A stretch of 64,000 bases of DNA, from contig JAFDGZ010000004.1 of assembly GCA_019309045.1 (NCBI GenBank), positions 5,178-69,177 of the forward strand, read 5' to 3'. The stretch's first letter is position 1. Every line of letters begins with the position of its first letter. Shown here one piece after another: positions 4,547 to 59,161 of the stretch. Under the pieces are notes generated by a model. The model was not told the DNA's origin. It made no database searches and saw nothing but the letters and a program-made list of their open reading frames with translations. This DNA is from Deltaproteobacteria bacterium. Lineage in GTDB: Bacteria; Desulfobacterota; Syntrophobacteria; BM002. Position numbers and translations under genes: made by a program.

Positions 4547-6415
4547 GTGCTCCTCCGGGTGCCACCCGGGTTTTCTGAAGATGATTCATTGGAAGCCGTT
4601 TTCTCTCCCACAAAAGAATCGTTGGCAGTTACCTTCAGCAAGATTCGCAACTACCTTCGTCAACCTCATGTCATAATATCTCTGATCCTTCTGGCCCTCC
4701 TCCTCATCATTGTAATCATACCTTTTTTAAAGATGATAAAAGACACCTTTGTCTGGCATTTTGCCGACGTACGGTTGTTTAGAAGCGCCAGTCCGGGGGA
4801 GTTTACTCTTTTTCACTGGAGAAGGATCTTTGCCAGCAGCCTTACCAGGAACATCCTGGTGCGTCCTCTGTGGAATTCCCTTGCTACTGCTTTGAGCGTC
4901 TCCTTGTTTGCCATGCTTATTGGCTCGGTGCTTGCCTGGCTGGCGGTCAGAACCGACCTGCCGCTACGCGGCTTTGTTGCCACCGCCGTGGTACTGCCAT
5001 ACGTCATTCCCTCCTACATTCATGCCCTGGCCTGGTTGAGTCTCTTCAAGAACGACCGGGTAGGGGGAGTAGCCGGCCTTTTTCAATTCTTCACCGGCAT
5101 CAGCCCACCCAACTGGCTGTCTTACGGCTACTTTCCAATTGTTTTGACTCTGTAGGTGCATTATTTCCCCTTTACCTTTCTGTTGGTGTCTGCTGCCCTG
5201 ACAAGCATTGACTCGAGCCTGGAAGAATCTGGAGAGATCTTTGAGGCAACGAGAGTGCACATCTTGCGCAAAATTACCTTTCCCCTGGTGCTGCCTGCCT
5301 TGATGTCTAGCTTTATTCTCACTTTTTCCAGGGTGGTGGGCACCTTTGGCACTCCCTATTTCCTCGGGACCCCAGTGCGCTATTACACGCTGGCAACGCA
5401 GATATATGCAAATATTATGAACAGGGTGCCTTCAGTGGGCTACATTCTTGCCTTTATCCTGATTGCGATTTCTTCGAGCATCATTCACTTCAACCAGCGT
5501 ATAATCGGCAAAAGAAAAAGCTTCGTCACTATCGCCGGCAAAGGCTTCAGGGTCGTGCGCACCCCCCTGGGAAAGATGCGTTACCCTCTACTGGCGGCCG
5601 TTGGCATGCTCCTGATAATCTCAGTTGTGATGCCCTTTCTTCTCATACTCTGGCAGACGTTTGCTTTATATAGCAGCGACTATTCCCTCGAGCATCTGAC
5701 GCTGCTCTTCTGGATAGGCAAGGGTGGTACAGCCTTTGCTGAAGGTGAGGCGGGTCTGCTGCGCAACCGTGCCATCATCAAGGCTGCCTGGAACAGTATC
5801 AAGCTTGCCCTGGTGGCATCCTGCTTTGCTGGCTTTTTTGGCATTTTCATAGGATACGCAGTGGTCAAAGGTCGCAACACCAGGCTTGCTCATCTGGTTG
5901 AACAGACTTCTTTTCTACCCTACCTGGTTCCAGGCATCGCTTTCGGGGCGCTCTATCTGTCCCTCTTTACGCACAAGATCGGCCCCATACCGGCTCTCTA
6001 TGGCAGTTTCTTGCTGTTGGCCCTGGTCTGCATTGCCAAGAATCTTCCCTTTACCGGCAGGGTAGGCATTACCTCCATGATGCAGATCGGCGGAGAACTG
6101 GAGGAGGCCTCGGAGACCCTGGGAGCAAGCTGGTTCTATCGCTTCAGAAAAATTATCCTGCCGCTTTCGTTTCAGGGGGCACTTTCTGGCTTTATTCTGG
6201 TGTTCATTACTGTAATGCGGGAGCTTTCGCTTATTATTCTGCTGGTGAACCCTGGTACCAGGACGCTTACTACCATGACTTTCCGCTATGAAGAACAGGG
6301 ATACACCCAGTTTTCCAGTGCTATCAGCGTCATGATTATCATCATTGTCGTGGTTGGCGAACTTCTGTCCAAGAGATTAGCGAAAGAGAAGGTAATCCAG
6401 AGATTGAGCGAGTAG
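4547..6415 (+). pseudogene. Fused two-domain ABC importer permease of the FbpB/ThiP iron(III)/thiamine type, interrupted by a single in-frame TAG at 5153-5155. It is either a pseudogene, a sequencing error or a read-through site
   Basis: ORFs 4547-5155 and 5156-6415 are in the same frame, separated only by the TAG. The stop falls inside the first transmembrane domain (...PIVLTL*VHYFPF...). Two EAA permease loops are present (EESGEIFEATRVHILRKITFPLVLPAL and LEEASETLGASWFYRFRKIILPLS). No substrate-binding protein gene is adjacent. Confidence 0.65.
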
Positions 6416-9819: not shown

Positions 9820-10596
9820 TCAAGTCAAGGAGGTGGCCTGGGGCAGGGCTCCTATCTGACGGAGTAATTTCAGGGACTTCAGATCCTTCTCCAGGTGGTG
9901 GCGGAGGAGATCGATGAGCAGGGGGCGGCATTCCTCCCGCGAGCGTGGATGAAATCTGAGTCGCCACATTCGGGCTACCGGAAACAGTTGGGCCTGGCGG
10001 AGGAGCAGGATTGTTCCCAATGAAACGGCATAGCTGTCAGTGCTCCGGCTGTGCTCAGGGCAGCAAAGTGAGCCTGCTGCAACTGAAAAAGACCATCCCG
10101 CAGCAGCGTCTGGCTGGCGATGGCACTGAATACAACCTTGTAGATTTGGGGCAAAGCCGCTCAGACTGAGGACGCGTATCTGAAAAAGCAGGGAGATGCT
10201 TTCAGGATCACGACCCTTTTCCAGTTGCAGCAGATATTGCAGCAGCAAGTCAAACAGAGGGGGATTGGCCTGACGCTCAGGTGCAATGCCAAGGATCACC
10301 TCACAACCGAGGCTGCCGTAGCCCAGCCGTTCAATATCTGCTCGCAGCGAGGTGAAGGGATTTCTCAATTCGCTGGCATCGATGCGCACCAAGCCAGAAG
10401 CAGAGCGCTCAGCGTAGGTGATGCTTGCGTAGCAGAGAGGCTCCAGGGAATGGACAAACCTCTTCTTGCTGCGGCGCGCTCCCTTGGCAATGCCCTTCAA
10501 GAGCCCCGTTCGTCTGCTGAAAAAAGTAATCAGACGGTCTGATTCGCCGTAATCAGTTGTTCTGAGGATGATCGATCTGCTGCGGCGGATAATCAT
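9820..10596 (-). CDS. recO: DNA repair protein RecO
   Basis: The N-terminal OB-fold signature IILRTTDYGESDRLITFFSRRTGLLKGIAKGAR is present, with a C-terminal Cys cluster (CIQCH...CCPEH). The exact start is uncertain. Confidence 0.8.
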   Translation of the reverse strand: MIIRRSRSIILRTTDYGESDRLITFFSRRTGLLKGIAKGARRSKKRFVHSLEPLCYASITYAERSASGLVRIDASELRNPFTSLRADIERLGYGSLGCEVILGIAPERQANPPLFDLLLQYLLQLEKGRDPESISLLFQIRVLSLSGFAPNLQGCIQCHRQPDAAAGWSFSVAAGSLCCPEHSRSTDSYAVSLGTILLLRQAQLFPVARMWRLRFHPRSREECRPLLIDLLRHHLEKDLKSLKLLRQIGALPQATSLT

Positions 10597-10683
10597 CTGC
10601 ATTCCCTGCAGCCAAAATAGGCCCCACAGTTGCTGAGCAACCAACTTGACACAGAGTATTGTTGGCCTCCACTGCCGAGCTTG

Positions 10684-12042
10684 TCAACTCACAATGTACT
10701 TCAAAAAGATGGTGGATATGGAGAGATAGATGAGAATGCCGGTAATATCATTGGCTGTTGTCACGAAGGGGCCAGAGGCCACCGCTGGATCTATGCCAAA
10801 GCGCTTGAACATGATGGGCACCACTGTGCCCATGAATGATGCCACTGTGATGGCGCCAGCCATGGCTGAGCCCACAGTAAGCCCTAGAGCCGCATTGTGG
10901 TGCCACAATTCTGCACAGATGCCCACAGTGAGACCGCAGGCCGCGGCCATGATCAGACCCACCTTGACTTCCTTGAACACGGCGCGGCCGACGCTGCGCA
11001 AATCGACCTGACCCGTTGCCAACCCTCTCACCGTAATGGATGAGGACTGCAGCCCCACATTGCCGCCCATGGCTGTAATGACCGGCACAAAGGTGACCAG
11101 GACAATGGCATCAGCAAGGGTAACCTTGAAGAGCCAGAGCAAATATCCGGTCAGCAAGCCGCCGAAGAGGTTGGTGATGAGCCAGGGAAGACGCACGCGG
11201 GAAATCTTCCAGATCTGATCCCCATACACCAGTTCATCCTCATGGGTGCCTGCCATGCGCAGGACGTCCTCAGAGACCTCTTCTTCGATAATATCGACAA
11301 TATCATCTATGGTTATCCGTCCTATGAGGCAGCCGTTATGATCCACCACCGGCGCGGAAATGAGATCGTACTTCTGGAACATCCTTGCCACATCCTCCTG
11401 GTCCATATCCACAGGAATAGGATGAATAGCAGTGTCCATGACCTCCGAGACTTTGTCCTCTGGCTTTGCCAGAATGAGCTTTCGCAGGCTCAACTGGCCC
11501 ACCACCTTGTCGCTTTGATCTACCACGAAGATGTTGGCGAGCCCCTCCAGTTCGGCGCCATGCTCTCTGACGTGGTTGATGGCGTCTGCCACCGTGGACT
11601 CCAAGGGTACGGCCAGATACTCTGCCTGCATGATGCCGCCGGCAGTCTCTTCGCCATAAGCGAGAAGTCGGCGCACCCTGCGGGAGTCCCTGATGTCAAC
11701 GTGCGCCAGTACTTCTTCCACCATTTCTTGTGGTCTGCCGGCAAGCAGATCGGCAGCATCGTCAGAGTCCAATTCATCAACAATTTCACCCAGTTGACGG
11801 TGGGAAAGATGGGCGACAATCTGATCTCTTGAGTACTCGGAGAGCTCTGAGATTACCTCGGAAGCGGTGTCTGTATCGAGCCTCTGAAACAATAACTTTT
11901 TTTCTGCTTCATCGAGTTGTTCGAAAAGATCAGCAATGTCTGCAGGGTGGAGTTGGGCGAGCAACTTGGTGGCCTCCGCCACCTTCTGTTCGTTGAGAAG
12001 TGATTTCAGCTTGTCGAGAAGAGTTTTGTTATCAATGCTCAT
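10684..12042 (-). CDS. mgtE: Magnesium transporter MgtE
   Basis: MgtE N-domain, tandem CBS domains and a C-terminal five-TM MgtE channel region are all recognisable. Confidence 0.9.
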   Translation of the reverse strand: MSIDNKTLLDKLKSLLNEQKVAEATKLLAQLHPADIADLFEQLDEAEKKLLFQRLDTDTASEVISELSEYSRDQIVAHLSHRQLGEIVDELDSDDAADLLAGRPQEMVEEVLAHVDIRDSRRVRRLLAYGEETAGGIMQAEYLAVPLESTVADAINHVREHGAELEGLANIFVVDQSDKVVGQLSLRKLILAKPEDKVSEVMDTAIHPIPVDMDQEDVARMFQKYDLISAPVVDHNGCLIGRITIDDIVDIIEEEVSEDVLRMAGTHEDELVYGDQIWKISRVRLPWLITNLFGGLLTGYLLWLFKVTLADAIVLVTFVPVITAMGGNVGLQSSSITVRGLATGQVDLRSVGRAVFKEVKVGLIMAAACGLTVGICAELWHHNAALGLTVGSAMAGAITVASFMGTVVPIMFKRFGIDPAVASGPFVTTANDITGILIYLSISTIFLKYIVS

Positions 12043-12049
12043 GGGATTG

Positions 12050-13054
12050 TCAGGGGGACGGAGTTTCGGAATAGCTCTCCTGCATCAAGGCTGGATCTGG
12101 CAGGAGCAACTGGACAACCTGGCCGCTGGCCCCGAGAGGTTTTAGGGGCTTGCTGTTCAGAAATAGCTTTACTCCAGCAGCATTTCCTATGCGAAGCTTG
12201 AACTTGGATTTGGCTTGCCACTTCATAACCTCTCCTGATTTAAGGATATATTCAGACGGCTTCCTGTCATCGATGATAATTTTCAGCCAGGTCGGCTCGA
12301 CTGCTTCAGCCCTGAGTTCATATGGCGCCGTCAGCGTGGGCTCCGGGGGAGTTCGGCTACCAGCGGCGAGCTGGAGTTTGACTGCAGGCTCTTCTTTCGG
12401 GGCGGCGGGCTTTTCTGCGGCAGATTGGGGCTGGGCCACAACCTTTGCGGTGGTGCTGCTCGGCTGCTCTTCTGGAGCTGGGGCTGCTACTTCCTCTTCT
12501 GCTGCAGCTGGAGAAGGCTCTGAACCAGGAGCTTTCACCGCCGAAACTGTCGAACCAGCTGCTGCTTCAGCACCGGGGCTGGATTTGGAGGACGGCTGTT
12601 TTTCAACAGCTGCAGAAGGTGCAGCAGTTTCTTGCGGGCCGACCTGAGGCAGGCCACCTGAGGGCAGCTGGGGCTGGAAGTGCAGAATCAACCAGAGGAT
12701 TACCCCGGCGACGCCCAGGATGGCCGCTGCCCCTGCGCCCAGCAGGAGTCCTTTTCTCGTTCTCGAGCTGCGAATTTGTCGCTCATGAAACTTCACCAGG
12801 GCCTCGTCGCCTGTGCTTTCCTCTTCAATGAGATCCTGGTACCTGAGAACCACAGCCTCAGGATCCAGACCCACCCGCTCCGCATAGGCGCGCAAGAAGC
12901 CCTTCACCAGTACAGGTGCGGGCAGTTGCGTGGTGTTGCCTGCTTCCAGGGCATTGAGCATCAACAGACTGATTTTGGTATCGGCGACAATCTCTTCCAA
13001 ACTAATGCCGCGCGCTTCTCGTTCCGACCTGAGATATTCTCCGAGACTTTTCAT
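12050..13054 (-). CDS. RodZ-like cytoskeleton protein: XRE-type HTH, single TM helix, Pro/Ala-rich linker, C-terminal DUF4115-like domain
   Basis: The N-terminal HTH is MKSLGEYLRSEREARGISLEEI. A TM helix (LLLGAGAAAILGVAGVILWLIL) follows. A long AP/E-rich linker leads to a conserved C-terminal beta domain. Confidence 0.65.
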   Translation of the reverse strand: MKSLGEYLRSEREARGISLEEIVADTKISLLMLNALEAGNTTQLPAPVLVKGFLRAYAERVGLDPEAVVLRYQDLIEEESTGDEALVKFHERQIRSSRTRKGLLLGAGAAAILGVAGVILWLILHFQPQLPSGGLPQVGPQETAAPSAAVEKQPSSKSSPGAEAAAGSTVSAVKAPGSEPSPAAAEEEVAAPAPEEQPSSTTAKVVAQPQSAAEKPAAPKEEPAVKLQLAAGSRTPPEPTLTAPYELRAEAVEPTWLKIIIDDRKPSEYILKSGEVMKWQAKSKFKLRIGNAAGVKLFLNSKPLKPLGASGQVVQLLLPDPALMQESYSETPSP

Positions 13055-39653: not shown

Positions 39654-39794
39654 CAGAGCCGGACTGCCGTTGAGCAGCAAGACTCCAGAGGAGTGAATCT
39701 CCCTGGAAACCTCGCCGCTTCATGCCCGGTGAGAAGCACTTCTGCAGTCGTACCTGGCAGGCGGAGAACCGGTGTGGCAAAAGGAGAATTCACG

Positions 39795-40988
39795 ATGCAA
39801 CTTGCTGAACGGATGAGCAAGATCAAACCCTCGGCCACCTTTGCTATCAGCAGCAGGGCCAGAGAGTTGCGTGCTCAGGGGTTGGAAGTGATAAATTTTT
39901 CCATTGGCGAACCTGACTTCCACACCCCCGAACACGTGTGCCAGGCAGCTATTGAGGCAATTCGCCAGGGCTTTACCAAGTATACGCCTGTTGGCGGCAT
40001 CGAAGAGTTGAAAGATGCCATAATTGCAGAATTTGAAAAATATTATGGCCTCTCCTACGAGCGTTCACAGGTCATTGTCTCCTGCGGTGCCAAGCACAGT
40101 TTATACAATCTAGCTCAGGTTCTCTTTAATCCAGGCGACCAGGTTATCGTGCCAGCTCCTTACTGGGTGAGTTACCCGGACATAGTCAGGCTGGCAGGAG
40201 CAGAGCCTGTGGTGGTCCCCACCCTCGAGGAAAATGATTTCAAGCTGACCGCGGCAATTCTGGAAGACCACCTAACGGAGCGCTGCCGCGGCCTGATCCT
40301 CAACAGTCCCAGCAATCCCACGGGTACTGTGTACAGCAGTGAGGAGCTTGCAGAGCTGGCGGAGGTGGTACTGCAGCACCGCTTGCTGGTCATATCAGAT
40401 GATATCTATTACAGAATACTGTTTGACGGTCTAAACTGGAACAGCCTTGCCATGCTGGACGATGAGCTCAGACAGTATACTATTGTGGTGAACGGTGTAT
40501 CCAAGACGTATGCCATGACGGGCTGGCGCATAGGCTATCTGGCTGCACCCGCAGAGATAGCCGCCGCAGTAAACAAGATTCAGGGCCAGAACACTTCCAA
40601 CCCCAATTCCATCGCCCAGAAAGCGGCGCTGGCTGCCCTGACCGGTCCCCAGGAGGCAGTGCAGTACATGGTGGACAAGTATGAACAGCGGCGCCAGCTC
40701 ATGCTGAGCCTTCTGGAGAAAATTCCGGGTGTTCGGGCCTTTCGACCTGCCGGAGCTTTCTATGTATTTGTGAATTGCAGTGCATTTTACGGTCGCTCCT
40801 TTGCCAGCGACACCATAGAAAACTCGGTTGATCTTGCCTCTTACCTGTTGGAAAAGGCTCAGATTGCCACTGTTCCCGGCATCGCCTTTGGTGAGGACGG
40901 TTATCTGCGCTTTTCTTTTGCTACTTCGGTGCAAGTAATAGAACGGGGCCTCGAACTGCTGAGTACCGCTCTGTCTCAGCTGCATTAG
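39795..40988 (+). CDS. Class I pyridoxal-phosphate aminotransferase (aspartate aminotransferase-like)
   Basis: The PLP-lysine motif is SKTYAMTGWRIGY. Fold type I is evident. An AAAGGAG RBS precedes the start. Confidence 0.85.
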   Translation: MQLAERMSKIKPSATFAISSRARELRAQGLEVINFSIGEPDFHTPEHVCQAAIEAIRQGFTKYTPVGGIEELKDAIIAEFEKYYGLSYERSQVIVSCGAKHSLYNLAQVLFNPGDQVIVPAPYWVSYPDIVRLAGAEPVVVPTLEENDFKLTAAILEDHLTERCRGLILNSPSNPTGTVYSSEELAELAEVVLQHRLLVISDDIYYRILFDGLNWNSLAMLDDELRQYTIVVNGVSKTYAMTGWRIGYLAAPAEIAAAVNKIQGQNTSNPNSIAQKAALAALTGPQEAVQYMVDKYEQRRQLMLSLLEKIPGVRAFRPAGAFYVFVNCSAFYGRSFASDTIENSVDLASYLLEKAQIATVPGIAFGEDGYLRFSFATSVQVIERGLELLSTALSQLH

Positions 40989-54680: not shown

Positions 54681-55141
54681 TGATAGAAATAGGAGAAATT
54701 CTCAGAATCATGCCTCATCGGTACCCTTTCCTTCTCGTCGATCGGATAGAGAAGTTGGACAAGGGCAGTGAAATCGTAGGCTTGAAAAACGTAACCATAA
54801 ATGAACCTTTTTTTATCGGACATTTTCCTGGCAAGCCGATCATGCCGGGAGTGCTTATTGTGGAAGCAATGGCCCAGGTGGGCGGCGTTCTTGCTTTTGT
54901 TTCCTCCCAGGCGGAACTGTCAGGCAGCCTTGTCTATTTCATGGGTATGGACAAGGTCCGCTTTCGAAAGCCTGTGGTCCCGGGCGACCAGTTGCGTCTG
55001 CACTTGAAAATGCTTCGGCAAAAGAGGAAGGTTTTCAAGATGCGAGGGGAGGCGTACGTTGGTGATTCCCTGGTGGCTGAGGCTGAACTGATGGCTGCAA
55101 TTGAAGATACTCCAAAGAAGGCAGAAGCAAGTGAGAGCTGA
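54677..55141 (+). CDS. fabZ: 3-hydroxyacyl-ACP dehydratase FabZ
   Basis: [14 protein letters not shown] and [19 protein letters not shown] are present. Confidence 0.95.
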
Positions 55142-55925
55142 ACAGAGAGCTGTCAGAATTCATCCGACGGCTATTATTCACACCAGCGTCAAACTGGAAC
55201 CTCCGGTCGAAATCGGGCCATACTCGGTGGTCGACGCGGAGGTTACTATCGGCAAGAACTGTAAGATTCATGCCCACGTCCATATTGCTTCATACACCGC
55301 AATTGGACCTCGCTGCGAGATCTATCCTTTTGCCTCTGTAGGTACACCGCCACAGGATCTCAAGTACGATGGTCGCCGTACGGGTACAGTCATCGGTGCT
55401 GACAACGTGATCAGGGAGTTCGTTACCATCAACCGGGGCAGCGTAGGGGGGCAAGAGATAACGAGGATCGGCGACCATAACTTGCTGATGGCCTATAGCC
55501 ATGTGGCGCATGATTGTGTTCTCGGCAATCATGTCATAATGGCCAATGCCGCGACTCTCGCCGGCCATGTCAATGTGGAAGATTTTGCCGTTCTTGGCGG
55601 CCTGACCGCAGTGCACCAGTACGTGCGCATAGGCACCCATGCCTTCGTAGGCGGCAAAACAGGAGTTTCCAAAGACATCCCGCCATATGCACTTGCTGCT
55701 GGCGACCGGGCTCGTCTCTATGGCATCAACACCATCGGTCTGAAAAGAAAGAATTTTAGCGAAGAAGTACTGCGGGCTCTGAAGGATTGTTACCGGATTT
55801 TGTTTCGCAGCCACAAACCGCTTCGCCAGGCACTTGCAGAGGCCGAGCGCAAGTGGGGCAATTTTGCCGAGGTGAGAATCCTGCTGGATTTTATTCTCGG
55901 CTCCCAGCGAGGCATAACCCGTTAG
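55131..55925 (+). CDS. lpxA: Acyl-ACP--UDP-N-acetylglucosamine O-acyltransferase LpxA
   Basis: IHPTAIIH, hexapeptide repeats and a C-terminal helical domain. A GTG start at 55131 is preferred over the ATG at 55101 because it gives an N-terminus collinear with LpxA. Confidence 0.85.
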   Translation: MRAEQRAVRIHPTAIIHTSVKLEPPVEIGPYSVVDAEVTIGKNCKIHAHVHIASYTAIGPRCEIYPFASVGTPPQDLKYDGRRTGTVIGADNVIREFVTINRGSVGGQEITRIGDHNLLMAYSHVAHDCVLGNHVIMANAATLAGHVNVEDFAVLGGLTAVHQYVRIGTHAFVGGKTGVSKDIPPYALAAGDRARLYGINTIGLKRKNFSEEVLRALKDCYRILFRSHKPLRQALAEAERKWGNFAEVRILLDFILGSQRGITR

Positions 55926-56065
55926 TGTCTTCTAAAGCTGTCAACAGTTGGGCCGTTGAGAGGTATAGATTAGATTGCTGCGGAAAGCCCTGCCTTCAAA
56001 GCTGAGTATGTTGACCTGTGAAACTTTGCCGGTCTTTCCCTCGTCGAGTTCTTGGTGGCACTGTG

Positions 56066-57964
56066 AATAGAATAGGACTAATTGCAGGGAGCGGCCAGTT
56101 TCCTCTCCTCTTCGCCCGGGCTGCCAGAAGCGCCAATTATACAGTAATAGCTGTAGCGCTAGAGGGTGAGACCGATGTGCGTTTGCAGGAAGAGGTGGAC
56201 CAGTGTACCTGGGTGAAACTGGGTCAACTGGGTCGCATGATAGAGACCTTGCAGCAGGCGAGGGTCTCTGAAGCTGTGATGGCGGGTTCAGTTGAAAAGA
56301 CCAAGCTTTTCCGGAAAATACGACCGGACTGGAAGGCGCTGAACCTGCTGGCGCGGATGTTTCACAAACAAGATGACGCCCTCCTGCGAGCACTGGCCCA
56401 GGAAATGGAACGGCATGGTATCAAAATTAGAGCCTCCACCATGTTTCTGCCCGATCTCCTCGCTCCCAGGGGCATCCTTGGTCGTCGCACCCCGAACAGA
56501 CGTGAGCGGCGAGATATCGAATTCGGCTGGCATCTGGCCAAAGAGATCGGCAGGTTGGATATAGGTCAGTGTATAGTTGTCAAAGACCAGGCTGTGCTGG
56601 CTGTTGAGGCAATTGAGGGAACCGACCAGACCATACTCAGGGGAGGCAGACTAGGTCAAGAAGGCTCTGTGGTCATCAAGGTCAGCAAACCAGGACAGGA
56701 TCTGCGTTTTGATGTCCCTGCAGTGGGTTTGCAGACCATAGTCAATATGGAGCGGGCAGGGGCAAAGGTTCTGGTCCTCGAAGCTGGTAAGACATTGATG
56801 TTTGACCGGCAGGAAATGATTCATGCTGCTGACCGGGCAGGCATTGCCATTGTCTGCAAAGAGGAACAGGGAGATTTTCTTGAACGGCAATTCCCTGTCG
56901 CTCCTGCGTGTCGGCGAGCGTCCTCCCGAGGAGAAGAACAAGCCGGCAATGGTTTGCCTCCCCGGATTGTTTCAGGAGGGCAGCAAGAGAAGATTAGTGT
57001 GGCTGTGGTGGGAGTGGGCTATCTGGGAAAGTTTCACACTGAAAAATACGCCAGCTTGCCTGACGCGGAGCTGGTTGCTGTGGTGGACATCGACGAGGCC
57101 AGAGCTTGCCAGGTAGCGAAGAAATTCTCTTGTCAGCCTTATTTTTCTCACCAGGACATCATTGGTAGGGTTGAAGCGGTAAGTGTGGTGACTCCCACGA
57201 AAGAGCACTATCATATTGCCCGGGATTTGCTGGAAGCTGGCATCCATGTGCTCGTGGAAAAACCCATGACAGTGACTCTGCCGGAGGCAGACATTCTCAT
57301 CGAGTTGGCCAGAGAGAGAGATCTTACTTTGCAAGTAGGACACCTGGAACGGTTCAACCCTGCAGTGGTGACCGCGCGGGAGCACGTGCAGCAGCCGTTG
57401 TTTGTGGAATCGCATCGCCTGGCTTCTTTTACTGAACGGGGAACCGAGGTCAACGTCATACTGGATCTTATGATCCATGACATTGACATTATTCTCAGCC
57501 TGCTGTCTTCTTCTTTGAAAGACCTGCATGCTGTGGGAGTTAGGGTTCTCACGCGCCATATTGATATTGCCAGCGTACGGCTGGAGTTTACCGACGGCTG
57601 CATTGCCAACCTGACAGCGAGTAGGATATCTGCCAAGAAAATGAGAAAGATAAGAATATTTCAACCGGACAGCTATATATCTCTGGACTATGCTGCCAGG
57701 AAGGTGGAGCTGTTTCGTAAGCTGAACCAGACGGGTTCTGACGGATTGCCGGAGATAGAATACCAACGTCTGCAGGTGGCCGATGTGGATCCCTTGCAGG
57801 AGGAGCTCCGTGCCTTCCTGCACTCCGTACGCAGCGGCGAGCCCCCAGTGGTGAGCGGCAAGGCCGGCAGAGACGCCCTGGAGCTTGCTACCCTGGTGAG
57901 CGATGAAATTCAGCAGAGGACGAAGGAGCTCAGCAGAGTCCTCGGCCTGGCCGGGGAGGGCTAG
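56066..57964 (+). CDS. lpxI: Fusion protein: N-terminal LpxI (UDP-2,3-diacylglucosamine pyrophosphatase, DUF1009) joined by a ~40-aa linker to a C-terminal Gfo/Idh/MocA-family NAD(P)-dependent oxidoreductase (GnnA-like)
   Basis: The LpxI part runs aa 1-280 (VNRIGLIAGSGQFPLL...AIVCKEE). The Rossmann start ISVAVVGVGYLGKFH opens a Gfo/Idh/MocA domain that continues to the end. One continuous frame; no internal stop. Confidence 0.7.
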   Translation, partial: NRIGLIAGSGQFPLLFARAARSANYTVIAVALEGETDVRLQEEVDQCTWVKLGQLGRMIETLQQARVSEAVMAGSVEKTKLFRKIRPDWKALNLLARMFHKQDDALLRALAQEMERHGIKIRASTMFLPDLLAPRGILGRRTPNRRERRDIEFGWHLAKEIGRLDIGQCIVVKDQAVLAVEAIEGTDQTILRGGRLGQEGSVVIKVSKPGQDLRFDVPAVGLQTIVNMERAGAKVLVLEAGKTLMFDRQEMIHAADRAGIAIVCKEEQGDFLERQFPVAPACRRASSRGEEQAGNGLPPRIVSGGQQEKISVAVVGVGYLGKFHTEKYASLPDAELVAVVDIDEARACQVAKKFSCQPYFSHQDIIGRVEAVSVVTPTKEHYHIARDLLEAGIHVLVEKPMTVTLPEADILIELARERDLTLQVGHLERFNPAVVTAREHVQQPLFVESHRLASFTERGTEVNVILDLMIHDIDIILSLLSSSLKDLHAVGVRVLTRHIDIASVRLEFTDGCIANLTASRISAKKMRKIRIFQPDSYISLDYAARKVELFRKLNQTGSDGLPEIEYQRLQVADVDPLQEELRAFLHSVRSGEPPVVSGKAGRDALELATLVSDEIQQRTKELSRVLGLAGEG

Positions 57965-57979: not shown

Positions 57980-59161
57980 GTGGTCAAAAAAGTCTTCATC
58001 ATAGCCGGGGAAGCTTCGGGGGATCTGCACGGCGCCAGCCTGGTAAAGGCTATGCGCTCATTGGATCCCTCCATTACTTTCCGCGGTGTAGGTGGAGACC
58101 GTATGCAGCGGGCAGGTGTAGTGCTGTGCGGCAGTGCGGCTTCCATGGCAGTGGTGGGAGCCACTGAGGTTGCCTGGCATCTCGGGACCATCGCCTCAAC
58201 TTTCCACAAGTGCATTGTCACCCTGCGCACCTGGCGTCCAGACCTGGTCATCCTCATTGACTACCCCGAGTTCAATATGCTCATTGCCAGGCTTGCCAGG
58301 AAGTTTGCTCTCAAGGTCATGTATTATATTGGCCCCCAGGTGTGGGCTTGGCGCCCTGGCCGGGTGAATACTCTTTGCAGGTGTGTGGACAAGATGGTGG
58401 TTGTCCTGGACTTCGAGGAGGACATTTACCGCAGAGCCGGGCTTGACGTTGCCTATGTGGGTCACCCCCTTCTCGATGTGGTAATACCGCGGAGCAGCGG
58501 TGATATGCTTGAGCAGCTGGGGTTCGCAGGGGAGCAAAAGAGATTCATTGGCCTGCTTCCCGGCAGTCGGCGAGGCGAGATCAAGTCATTGCTGCCCCTC
58601 ATGTTGGCCAGCGCTGAAATTCTGGCAACTAAAGTCGATGGGCTCCATTTTGTTGTCCCACTGGCTCCGACCATTCAAAAGAGAGAGCTCTCTGACTTTT
58701 TACAGGGACGAAATCTGCCTTTGACACTGATCGAGGGACGAACCCACCAGGTTATGCAAATATGCAAGGTGTTGCTGGCGGCCTCCGGCACGGTGACACT
58801 GGAGGCTGCTATCCTGGGCACCCCATTTGTGGTAGTCTACAAAGTGAACCCCCTGACTTACAAGCTGGGCAGAGCACTGGTCAGGGTGGACCACCTGGCC
58901 CTGACTAACATTATAGCTGGTGCTGCCGTTGTTCCGGAGCTGCTGCAGCACGAGGCCCATCCTGGAGCGATAGCGGAGGAAGTTCTGCGGCTGTTGGAAA
59001 ATTCATCCTACCAGGAAGGCATGAGAGAGGCGCTTGCTCGGGTACGTCAGCGCCTGGGAACTCCCGGGGCATCCGAGAGGGCCGCTGCTATAGCTGTGGA
59101 GATGCTTGCAGGCGGGAAGTCTACCTGCAGGGCTGCAGCAGCTGCCAGGCGGGCCCCTTGA
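57980..59161 (+). CDS. lpxB: Lipid-A-disaccharide synthase LpxB
   Basis: Start MVKKVFIIAGEASGDLHGA and a GT-B fold, collinear with LpxB. Confidence 0.9.
   Translation: MVKKVFIIAGEASGDLHGASLVKAMRSLDPSITFRGVGGDRMQRAGVVLCGSAASMAVVGATEVAWHLGTIASTFHKCIVTLRTWRPDLVILIDYPEFNMLIARLARKFALKVMYYIGPQVWAWRPGRVNTLCRCVDKMVVVLDFEEDIYRRAGLDVAYVGHPLLDVVIPRSSGDMLEQLGFAGEQKRFIGLLPGSRRGEIKSLLPLMLASAEILATKVDGLHFVVPLAPTIQKRELSDFLQGRNLPLTLIEGRTHQVMQICKVLLAASGTVTLEAAILGTPFVVVYKVNPLTYKLGRALVRVDHLALTNIIAGAAVVPELLQHEAHPGAIAEEVLRLLENSSYQEGMREALARVRQRLGTPGASERAAAIAVEMLAGGKSTCRAAAAARRAP

Follow-up and report, generated by a model that had tools for sequence, protein, structure and literature searches.

The 64,000-nucleotide stretch of DNA analysed here (henceforth the window; positions 5,178 to 69,177 of the forward strand of contig JAFDGZ010000004.1, assembly GCA_019309045.1, deposited as Deltaproteobacteria bacterium) carries a gene in which the coding sequence of an LpxI-type enzyme of lipid A synthesis is joined in frame to that of a GnnA-type sugar dehydrogenase. 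We refer to this fused gene as lpxI~gnnA. A single open reading frame (ORF) runs from 56018 to 57964 on the forward strand, counts 648 residues from GTG 56018, the first GTG past a stop, ends with the stop codon TAG at 57962-57964 and contains neither an internal stop nor a frameshift. All four Pfam domains (4/4) found in the 648-residue protein exceeded their gathering thresholds: LpxI_N (PF17930; residues 18-147, E value 7e-43, 146 bits against a cut-off of 25) and LpxI_C (PF06230; residues 150-279, E value 1e-52, 178 bits against 25), each matched over the whole profile, followed by GFO_IDH_MocA (PF01408; residues 326-442, E value 2e-31, 110 bits against 24) and GFO_IDH_MocA_C3 (PF22725; residues 467-547, 33 bits against 27). 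The residue numbers of these hits, and those of Asp232, Lys415, Asp483-His487 and Met267 below, follow the 648-residue numbering. The gene lies in a complete lpx/lol/bamA cluster with the order lolCE, lolD, bamA, skp, lpxD, fabZ, lpxA, lpxI~gnnA, lpxB, msbA, waaA and lpxK. An earlier interpretation, made from the letters of this DNA and its ORFs (henceforth the sequence-only reading), had proposed a complete in-frame fusion of LpxI to an oxidoreductase located between lpxA and lpxB. Both proposals held: one ORF encodes the four domains with no break between them, and both neighbours were identified by Pfam.

The true start of lpxI~gnnA is likely GTG 56063, which yields a protein of 633 residues, agrees with the N-termini of eight aligned relatives and matches the length of the JGI gene call (P0401, 633 residues). 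Of the gene extent given by the sequence-only reading, the ORF and its end at 57964 stood, whereas its start at 56066 falls one codon 3' of GTG 56063. The NCBI annotation calls the last 382 residues only (MBW1982001.1 and MBW2069986.1, 'Gfo/Idh/MocA family oxidoreductase'); this call begins at Met267, inside LpxI_C, and leaves positions 56018-56815 of the window (the lpxI part; L001 1737-2628) without a gene. Short calls of 338-366 residues, at 56-69% identity, also occur in relatives (P0124, P0130 and P0165 (Desulfacinum infernum)), which suggests the same under-annotation of lpxI in other genomes. Where lpxI remains uncalled, pathway reconstructions would report a lipid A step as missing.

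Table 1. Features at the lpxI~gnnA locus, in window coordinates.
Feature	Position	Strand	Evidence and remarks
lpxA, 5' neighbour	55101..55925	+	Pfam Hexapep and Acetyltransf_11; database gene call begins at 55131
GGTGG, Shine-Dalgarno-like motif	56054..56058	+	4 nt 5' of GTG 56063; read from the sequence, putative function
Fused lpxI~gnnA gene	56063..57964	+	633 residues from GTG 56063; ORF list, translation
LpxI domain (putative UDP-2,3-diacylglucosamine diphosphatase)	56069..56854	+	Pfam LpxI_N and LpxI_C; PDB 4ggm
Asp232 codon, motif RFDVP	56711..56713	+	aligned with the Asp of RVDLP in 4ggm
Interdomain linker, ~38 residues (GDFLERQFPVAPACRRASSRGEEQAGNGLPPRIVSGGQ)	56870..56983	+	AlphaFold2; alignment of 40 fusions
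AGGAGG in linker	56974..56979	+	offset -37 from the GxGYLG motif
GnnA-type Gfo/Idh/MocA dehydrogenase domain	56993..57937	+	Pfam, PDB 7bvj, NCBIfam
Lys415 codon, EKP motif	57260..57262	+	VEKP aligned to EKP of 7bvj; invariant in fusion alignments
Asp483-His487, motif DLMIHD (D-x3-H)	57464..57478	+	identical in 7bvj; invariant in fusions
lpxB, 3' neighbour	57980..59161	+	Pfam LpxB, E value 9e-93; starts 15 nt past the fusion stop

The N-terminal half resembles LpxI of Caulobacter crescentus (PDB 4ggm and 4j6e), the alternative to LpxH. Query residues 1-265 matched chain residues 4-276 of 4ggm with an E value of 5e-35, so that the likeness extends over the full domain; both Pfam domains, the KPxQDxRxDxPxxG motif and the key Asp are kept, and the gene is likewise placed between lpxA and lpxB. 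Asp232 is invariant in fusion alignments of nine and of 40 proteins. From the three-residue chain offset, we infer that its counterpart is D225 of native C. crescentus LpxI, a residue that we take to be catalytic, 4j6e being presumably the D225A mutant. Unlike C. crescentus LpxI, the window protein continues into a C-terminal extension of ~360 residues, comprising the linker and the GnnA half.

The C-terminal half consists of a Rossmann fold (residues 326-442) and a C-terminal alpha/beta domain extending to about residue 640. Its top match in the PDB was 7bvj/7bvk (E value 1.3e-62, 215 bits, 301 query residues), the second-best structure reaching an E value of 2.4e-23. The 7bvj structure is that of the UDP-N-acetylglucosamine (UDP-GlcNAc) 3-dehydrogenase GnnA (bioRxiv 10.1101/2024.11.05.622173), from Acidithiobacillus ferrooxidans. 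The half is also 52% identical to the GnnA proteins encoded next to gnnB at two other loci (L007 and L121), which are themselves 37-45% identical to 7bvj. Fold and family are the same as in the A. ferrooxidans enzyme, and both the EKP and the DLMIHD motifs are kept. The EKP lysine is catalytic across the Gfo/Idh/MocA family, and DLMIHD, the most conserved peptide of the family, served as the query in our genome scan. Homology thus assigns the C-terminal half to the GnnA-type UDP-GlcNAc 3-dehydrogenases, as the sequence-only reading had surmised in calling it GnnA-like. In A. ferrooxidans, the dehydrogenase GnnA and the aminotransferase GnnB together yield UDP-GlcNAc3N, the 3-amino sugar nucleotide used for lipid A. 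Like the gnnA of classical gnnA-gnnB pairs (L007, L023, L034, L036 and others), the fused domain is encoded between lpxA and lpxB; unlike A. ferrooxidans GnnA, it is covalently attached to LpxI and has no gnnB adjacent to it.

Between the two halves lies a linker that is predicted to be disordered. The AlphaFold2 model of the 633-residue protein gave a predicted local distance difference test score (pLDDT) of about 30 at residues 270-307 and mostly 85-97 in both domains, with a predicted template modelling score (pTM) of 0.60. Such a pTM, together with the low linker pLDDT, implies that the domains would hold no fixed mutual orientation. Over 40 fusions, conservation follows the same division, identity to the window protein being 65% in LpxI, 58% in GnnA and 12% in the linker, the length of which varies from 33 to 49 residues.

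Loci were gathered by scanning species-representative genomes and metagenome contigs, and their gene arrangement was checked by tblastn and by inspection of the ORFs. Comparing related genomes for fused against separate genes, as the sequence-only reading had suggested, gave nine true fusions (the window, L002, L005, L009, L010, L089, L090, L091 and L092) and 52 loci at which lpxI and gnnA are separate neighbours between lpxA and lpxB. The unfused loci belong to Nitrospirota (including Nitrospira), Desulfobacterales, Desulfatiglandales, Binatia, Acidobacteriota, Magnetococcales, Elusimicrobiota, Troglogloeales and others. Examples are those of two Thermodesulfobacteriota metagenome-assembled genomes (MAGs; L006 and L008), of Nitrospira (L085 and L086), of Binatia (L028 and L048) and of Acidobacteriota (L077). 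These unfused lpxA-lpxI-gnnA-lpxB operons share with the window the gene order and the neighbours lolCD, bamA, skp, lpxD and fabZ; the nearest unfused GnnA is 56% identical to the fused one, and gnnB is mostly absent from these clusters too. What sets them apart from the window is a stop codon, often with a short spacer or an overlap, between lpxI and gnnA. At several unfused loci (L012, L014, L015 and L101) the two genes even share one reading frame, with a single stop between them. Since lpxI-gnnA neighbours are widespread and some are one stop apart, the fusion is a read-through merger of a common gene pair, and as a clade-specific merger of this kind it is less unusual than the single window suggests.

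A trace of the former gene boundary may survive in the linker. At L006 and L008, the unfused loci most closely related to the window, the Shine-Dalgarno sequence of gnnA lies at -36/-37 from the GxGYLG motif and is followed by an ATG at -27; the window reads CAA where these gnnA genes have ATG. The AGGAGG of the window linker is thus probably a relic of the Shine-Dalgarno sequence of a once-separate gnnA, one that is not kept in the linkers of the fusions L005, L002, L010 and L090.

The merger did not happen just once. In a bootstrapped neighbour-joining (NJ) tree of concatenated LpxI and GnnA sequences, the L089 fusion fell inside the unfused Desulfobacterales in 300/300 replicates, and all fusions were monophyletic in 0/300. 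A single origin of all fusions is therefore rejected, and at least two independent fusion events are required. The six Syntrophobacter-type fusions were monophyletic in 148/300 replicates, a weak support. Two more fusion lineages, represented by L089 1559-3457 (P0239) and L090 10001-11875 (the P0240 group, a 21-member cluster), are about 46% identical to the window protein.

Other mergers and arrangements of these genes were also seen. Two proteins from the representative search, P0275 (718 residues) and P0330 (679 residues), carry a GnnA-type dehydrogenase N-terminal to LpxB; they are like the window protein in joining the dehydrogenase to a late lipid A neighbour and differ in that the partner is LpxB. 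The same type of dehydrogenase was found fused once to guanylate kinase (P0243, 504 residues). All three are single-member clusters at 90% identity and hence less well supported. Several phyla have proteins annotated as bifunctional LpxC/FabZ, another merger of neighbouring lipid A genes whose steps are non-consecutive; as in the window, two operon enzymes share one chain, the domains being different. At L101 (2126-3919) the same-frame lpxI and gnnA, with one stop and 3 nt between them, lie outside any lpx operon, among ORFs whose translations resemble a peptidyl-prolyl isomerase, a TlyA-like methyltransferase, RecN and NAD kinase; the two genes thus remain paired even when lpxA and lpxB do not flank them. 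In an Elusimicrobiota MAG (L053 10001-12863), lpxI and gnnA stand ~1.2 kb apart, which suggests a gene inserted between them.

Our preferred interpretation, to which we assign a probability of roughly 0.7, is that lpxI~gnnA encodes a bifunctional LpxI/GnnA protein whose GnnA domain serves a GnnB encoded at an unlinked site. The architecture, its conservation, the homology and conserved catalytic residues of each half and the evolutionary origin of the fusion are established, and both enzyme activities, the existence of this GnnB and a lipid A built on 2,3-diaminoglucose (GlcN3N) are predicted. One polypeptide would then hold two independent lipid A enzymes, joined by a disordered linker of ~38 residues. 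The GnnA domain would act at the pathway's beginning and oxidise the 3-hydroxyl group of UDP-GlcNAc with nicotinamide adenine dinucleotide (NAD+) to give UDP-3-keto-GlcNAc, and the unlinked GnnB aminotransferase would convert this keto-sugar to UDP-GlcNAc3N. The LpxI domain would act on UDP-2,3-diacyl-glucosamine, or its 3-amino analogue, to give lipid X and uridine monophosphate, the step preceding LpxB, and the resulting lipid A would carry its acyl chains at position 3 in amide linkage. The fused gene arose when the stop codon separating neighbouring lpxI and gnnA was lost. Because the GnnA and LpxI steps are four reactions apart, substrate channelling is unlikely; equal co-expression is a likely benefit, tethering of GnnA to membrane-associated late enzymes perhaps another, and the merger may have been nearly neutral.

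Several observations weigh against this interpretation. The LpxI half differs from C. crescentus LpxI in falling under the cut-off of the NCBIfam LpxI equivalog (NF047836; 166.9 bits, i.e. 167 against 400), which is why NCBI labels the relatives 'LpxI' or 'LpxI domain-containing protein'. Identity of the other half to A. ferrooxidans GnnA (7bvj), the sole characterised GnnA, is 37.5% over 296 aligned residues. The top NCBIfam hit of this half, the archaeal UDP-GlcNAc 3-dehydrogenase NF040723, scored 213 bits, below its equivalog cut-off of 450; by this score the window protein is outside that archaeal family, which represents a related activity. With GnnB from the classical lpxA-gnnA-gnnB-lpxB locus L007 as the query for tblastn against the window and ~170 loci, the 64-kb window yielded no DegT-family gene (best E value 0.19), in line with the claim of the sequence-only reading that the cluster lacks gnnB, and the ±10 kb around each of eight other fusion loci yielded none either. 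Across the ~170 loci, matches occurred solely in lineages other than the fusion carriers. Counted over informative loci, gnnB is adjacent to fused lpxI~gnnA at 0/8, to gnnA with a separate lpxI at 3/39 (L030, L121 and L122) and to gnnA without lpxI at 31/68; the resulting rarity of gnnB beside lpxI-linked gnnA (3/47 vs 31/68, Fisher p 3e-6) is confounded by lineage.

The sole aminotransferase-like match in the window is a class I/II (AspC-like) ORF at 39693-40988, 15 kb upstream. It is unrelated to DegT (E value 0.19) and shows no sign of membership in the lpx cluster, from which it is separated by pilB- and pilC-like genes, a histidine kinase gene and lysS.

The rarity of gnnB beside lpxI-linked gnnA is one argument for a different role of the dehydrogenase, independent of GnnB and tied to the LpxI and LpxB steps. 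It might, for instance, oxidise a sugar substrate that is lipid-linked or of another kind, or have a non-DegT aminotransferase as its partner, and the fusion would then reflect physical coupling to late membrane-proximal enzymes. The fusion of the same dehydrogenase to LpxB in P0275 and P0330, and the origin of the LpxI fusion at least twice, also speak for such a role. We nevertheless consider it unlikely. The fused domain shares 52% identity with GnnA proteins encoded beside gnnB, keeps the motifs it has in common with 7bvj and does not belong to a separate deep clade: in an NJ tree of GnnA, lpxI-linked and gnnB-linked sequences were interleaved, largely by organismal group. Furthermore, lpxA, lpxI, gnnA and gnnB are contiguous at L030 (~10055-12974), L121 (1511-4615) and L122 (1507-3798), one Nitrospirota MAG and two metagenome contigs that provide the only direct links between an lpxI cluster and gnnB. 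(The gnnB of L030 is apparently frameshifted in that assembly.) A merger of adjacent genes requires no functional coupling, and the negative association of lpxI and gnnB, which tracks lineage, may stem from the history of the operons and not from function.

A gnnB away from gnnA is, moreover, ordinary: the two are not adjacent at 37/68 of the loci without lpxI, and in Granulibacter, which makes GlcN3N lipid A, the gnnA and gnnB candidates stand under widely separated protein accessions (PMC8036547). LpxI and GlcN3N are also compatible, since C. crescentus, in which LpxI was discovered (PMC4624066), is among the bacteria listed with GlcN3N lipid A (PMC8036547). Thus, with the fused domain falling among both gnnB-linked and unlinked GnnA proteins, unlinked gnnB at 37/68 loci and three lpxI-gnnA-gnnB loci, it is most likely that the GnnB partner of lpxI~gnnA is encoded elsewhere in the genome and that the dehydrogenase has no different role. 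GnnB is a tight family whose orthologues share 45-82% identity between phyla. A GnnB profile search returned 8000/8000 candidates with E values <1e-60, the top 120 at ~640 bits, and none of these was tied to a fusion carrier. The best score, 731 bits, belonged to P0402 (515 residues, on a 2.4-kb contig), possibly a GnnB with an extension or a partial duplication, the other hits having 362-378 residues.

A second alternative leaves function the same as in the unfused operon and proposes that the ORF gives rise to two proteins, through internal initiation in the linker or proteolysis of its disordered chain. The strong AGGAGG at 56974-79 would provide a ribosome-binding site, and a linker that is unconserved and predicted to be disordered would be open to cleavage. 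Yet AGGAGG has no start codon suitably spaced for use, the nearest in-frame GTG being 19 nt 3' of it; the ancestral ATG is replaced by CAA, and four other fusions lack the AGGAGG. The frame stays open through 33-49 variable linker residues in 40/40 fusions, which points to selection for read-through. We therefore hold production of two proteins to be improbable as well, and prefer a single bifunctional chain.

The same architecture is found well beyond the window. Another 'Deltaproteobacteria bacterium' MAG in NCBI (GCA_019308175.1) is 100% identical to the window over 9.8 kb, the synteny around the fusion is identical in four other contigs (L002, L005, L090 and L091), and among the matches listed at least 120 clusters (at 90% identity) have the same architecture, with 617-670 residues and 52-68% identity. 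Named carriers are Desulfacinum infernum DSM 9756, Desulfosoma caldarium and MAGs of Syntrophobacterales and Syntrophobacteraceae. Clustering at 50% identity reduces the fusions to ~4 clusters, so the fusion is limited to a few related lineages, among sulfate-reducing and syntrophic bacteria. A sequencing or assembly error, by which a lost stop or a frameshift merged two genes, might be suspected of a MAG for which NCBI annotates merely a 382-residue product, but this vanishingly improbable explanation is ruled out by conservation of the ORF, given the 100% match in GCA_019308175.1, the same single ORF in many independent assemblies, isolate genomes among them, and an NCBI call from Met267 within LpxI_C that reflects a gene-calling choice with no break in the DNA.

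Hundreds of database entries already contain the fusion, labelled by automatic annotation as, for example, 'DUF1009 family protein/predicted dehydrogenase' or 'LpxI domain-containing protein'. In the literature searched we found no description of an LpxI-GnnA fusion and no paper naming both GnnA and LpxI, which agrees with the statement in the sequence-only reading that such a fusion had not been described as a characterised enzyme. Each domain comes from a characterised family, and it is the fused architecture that was not met in the searched literature. The fusion departs modestly from known enzymes and, given the conserved lpxI-gnnA neighbourhood, is unsurprising.

That GnnA has repeatedly been fused, both with LpxI and with LpxB, gives a weak 'Rosetta stone' hint of enzyme association. 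With the dehydrogenase fused to LpxI at least twice and to LpxB in other lineages, and gnnB almost never adjacent, the GnnA-like enzyme that accompanies lpxI in many phyla might be part of a membrane-proximal complex that couples it, physically and functionally, to the LpxI/LpxB stage, or might work without a DegT-type GnnB. We regard this as a long shot; if true, these lineages would make 3-modified lipid A by a variant route not described so far. Our preferred interpretation, a bifunctional LpxI/GnnA with an unlinked GnnB, predicts instead that Syntrophobacter-type bacteria would build their lipid A on a 2,3-diaminoglucose backbone, and through the unfused operon this prediction would reach Nitrospirota, Desulfobacterales, Binatia and others. 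A lipid A of this type alters membrane stability and innate immune recognition.

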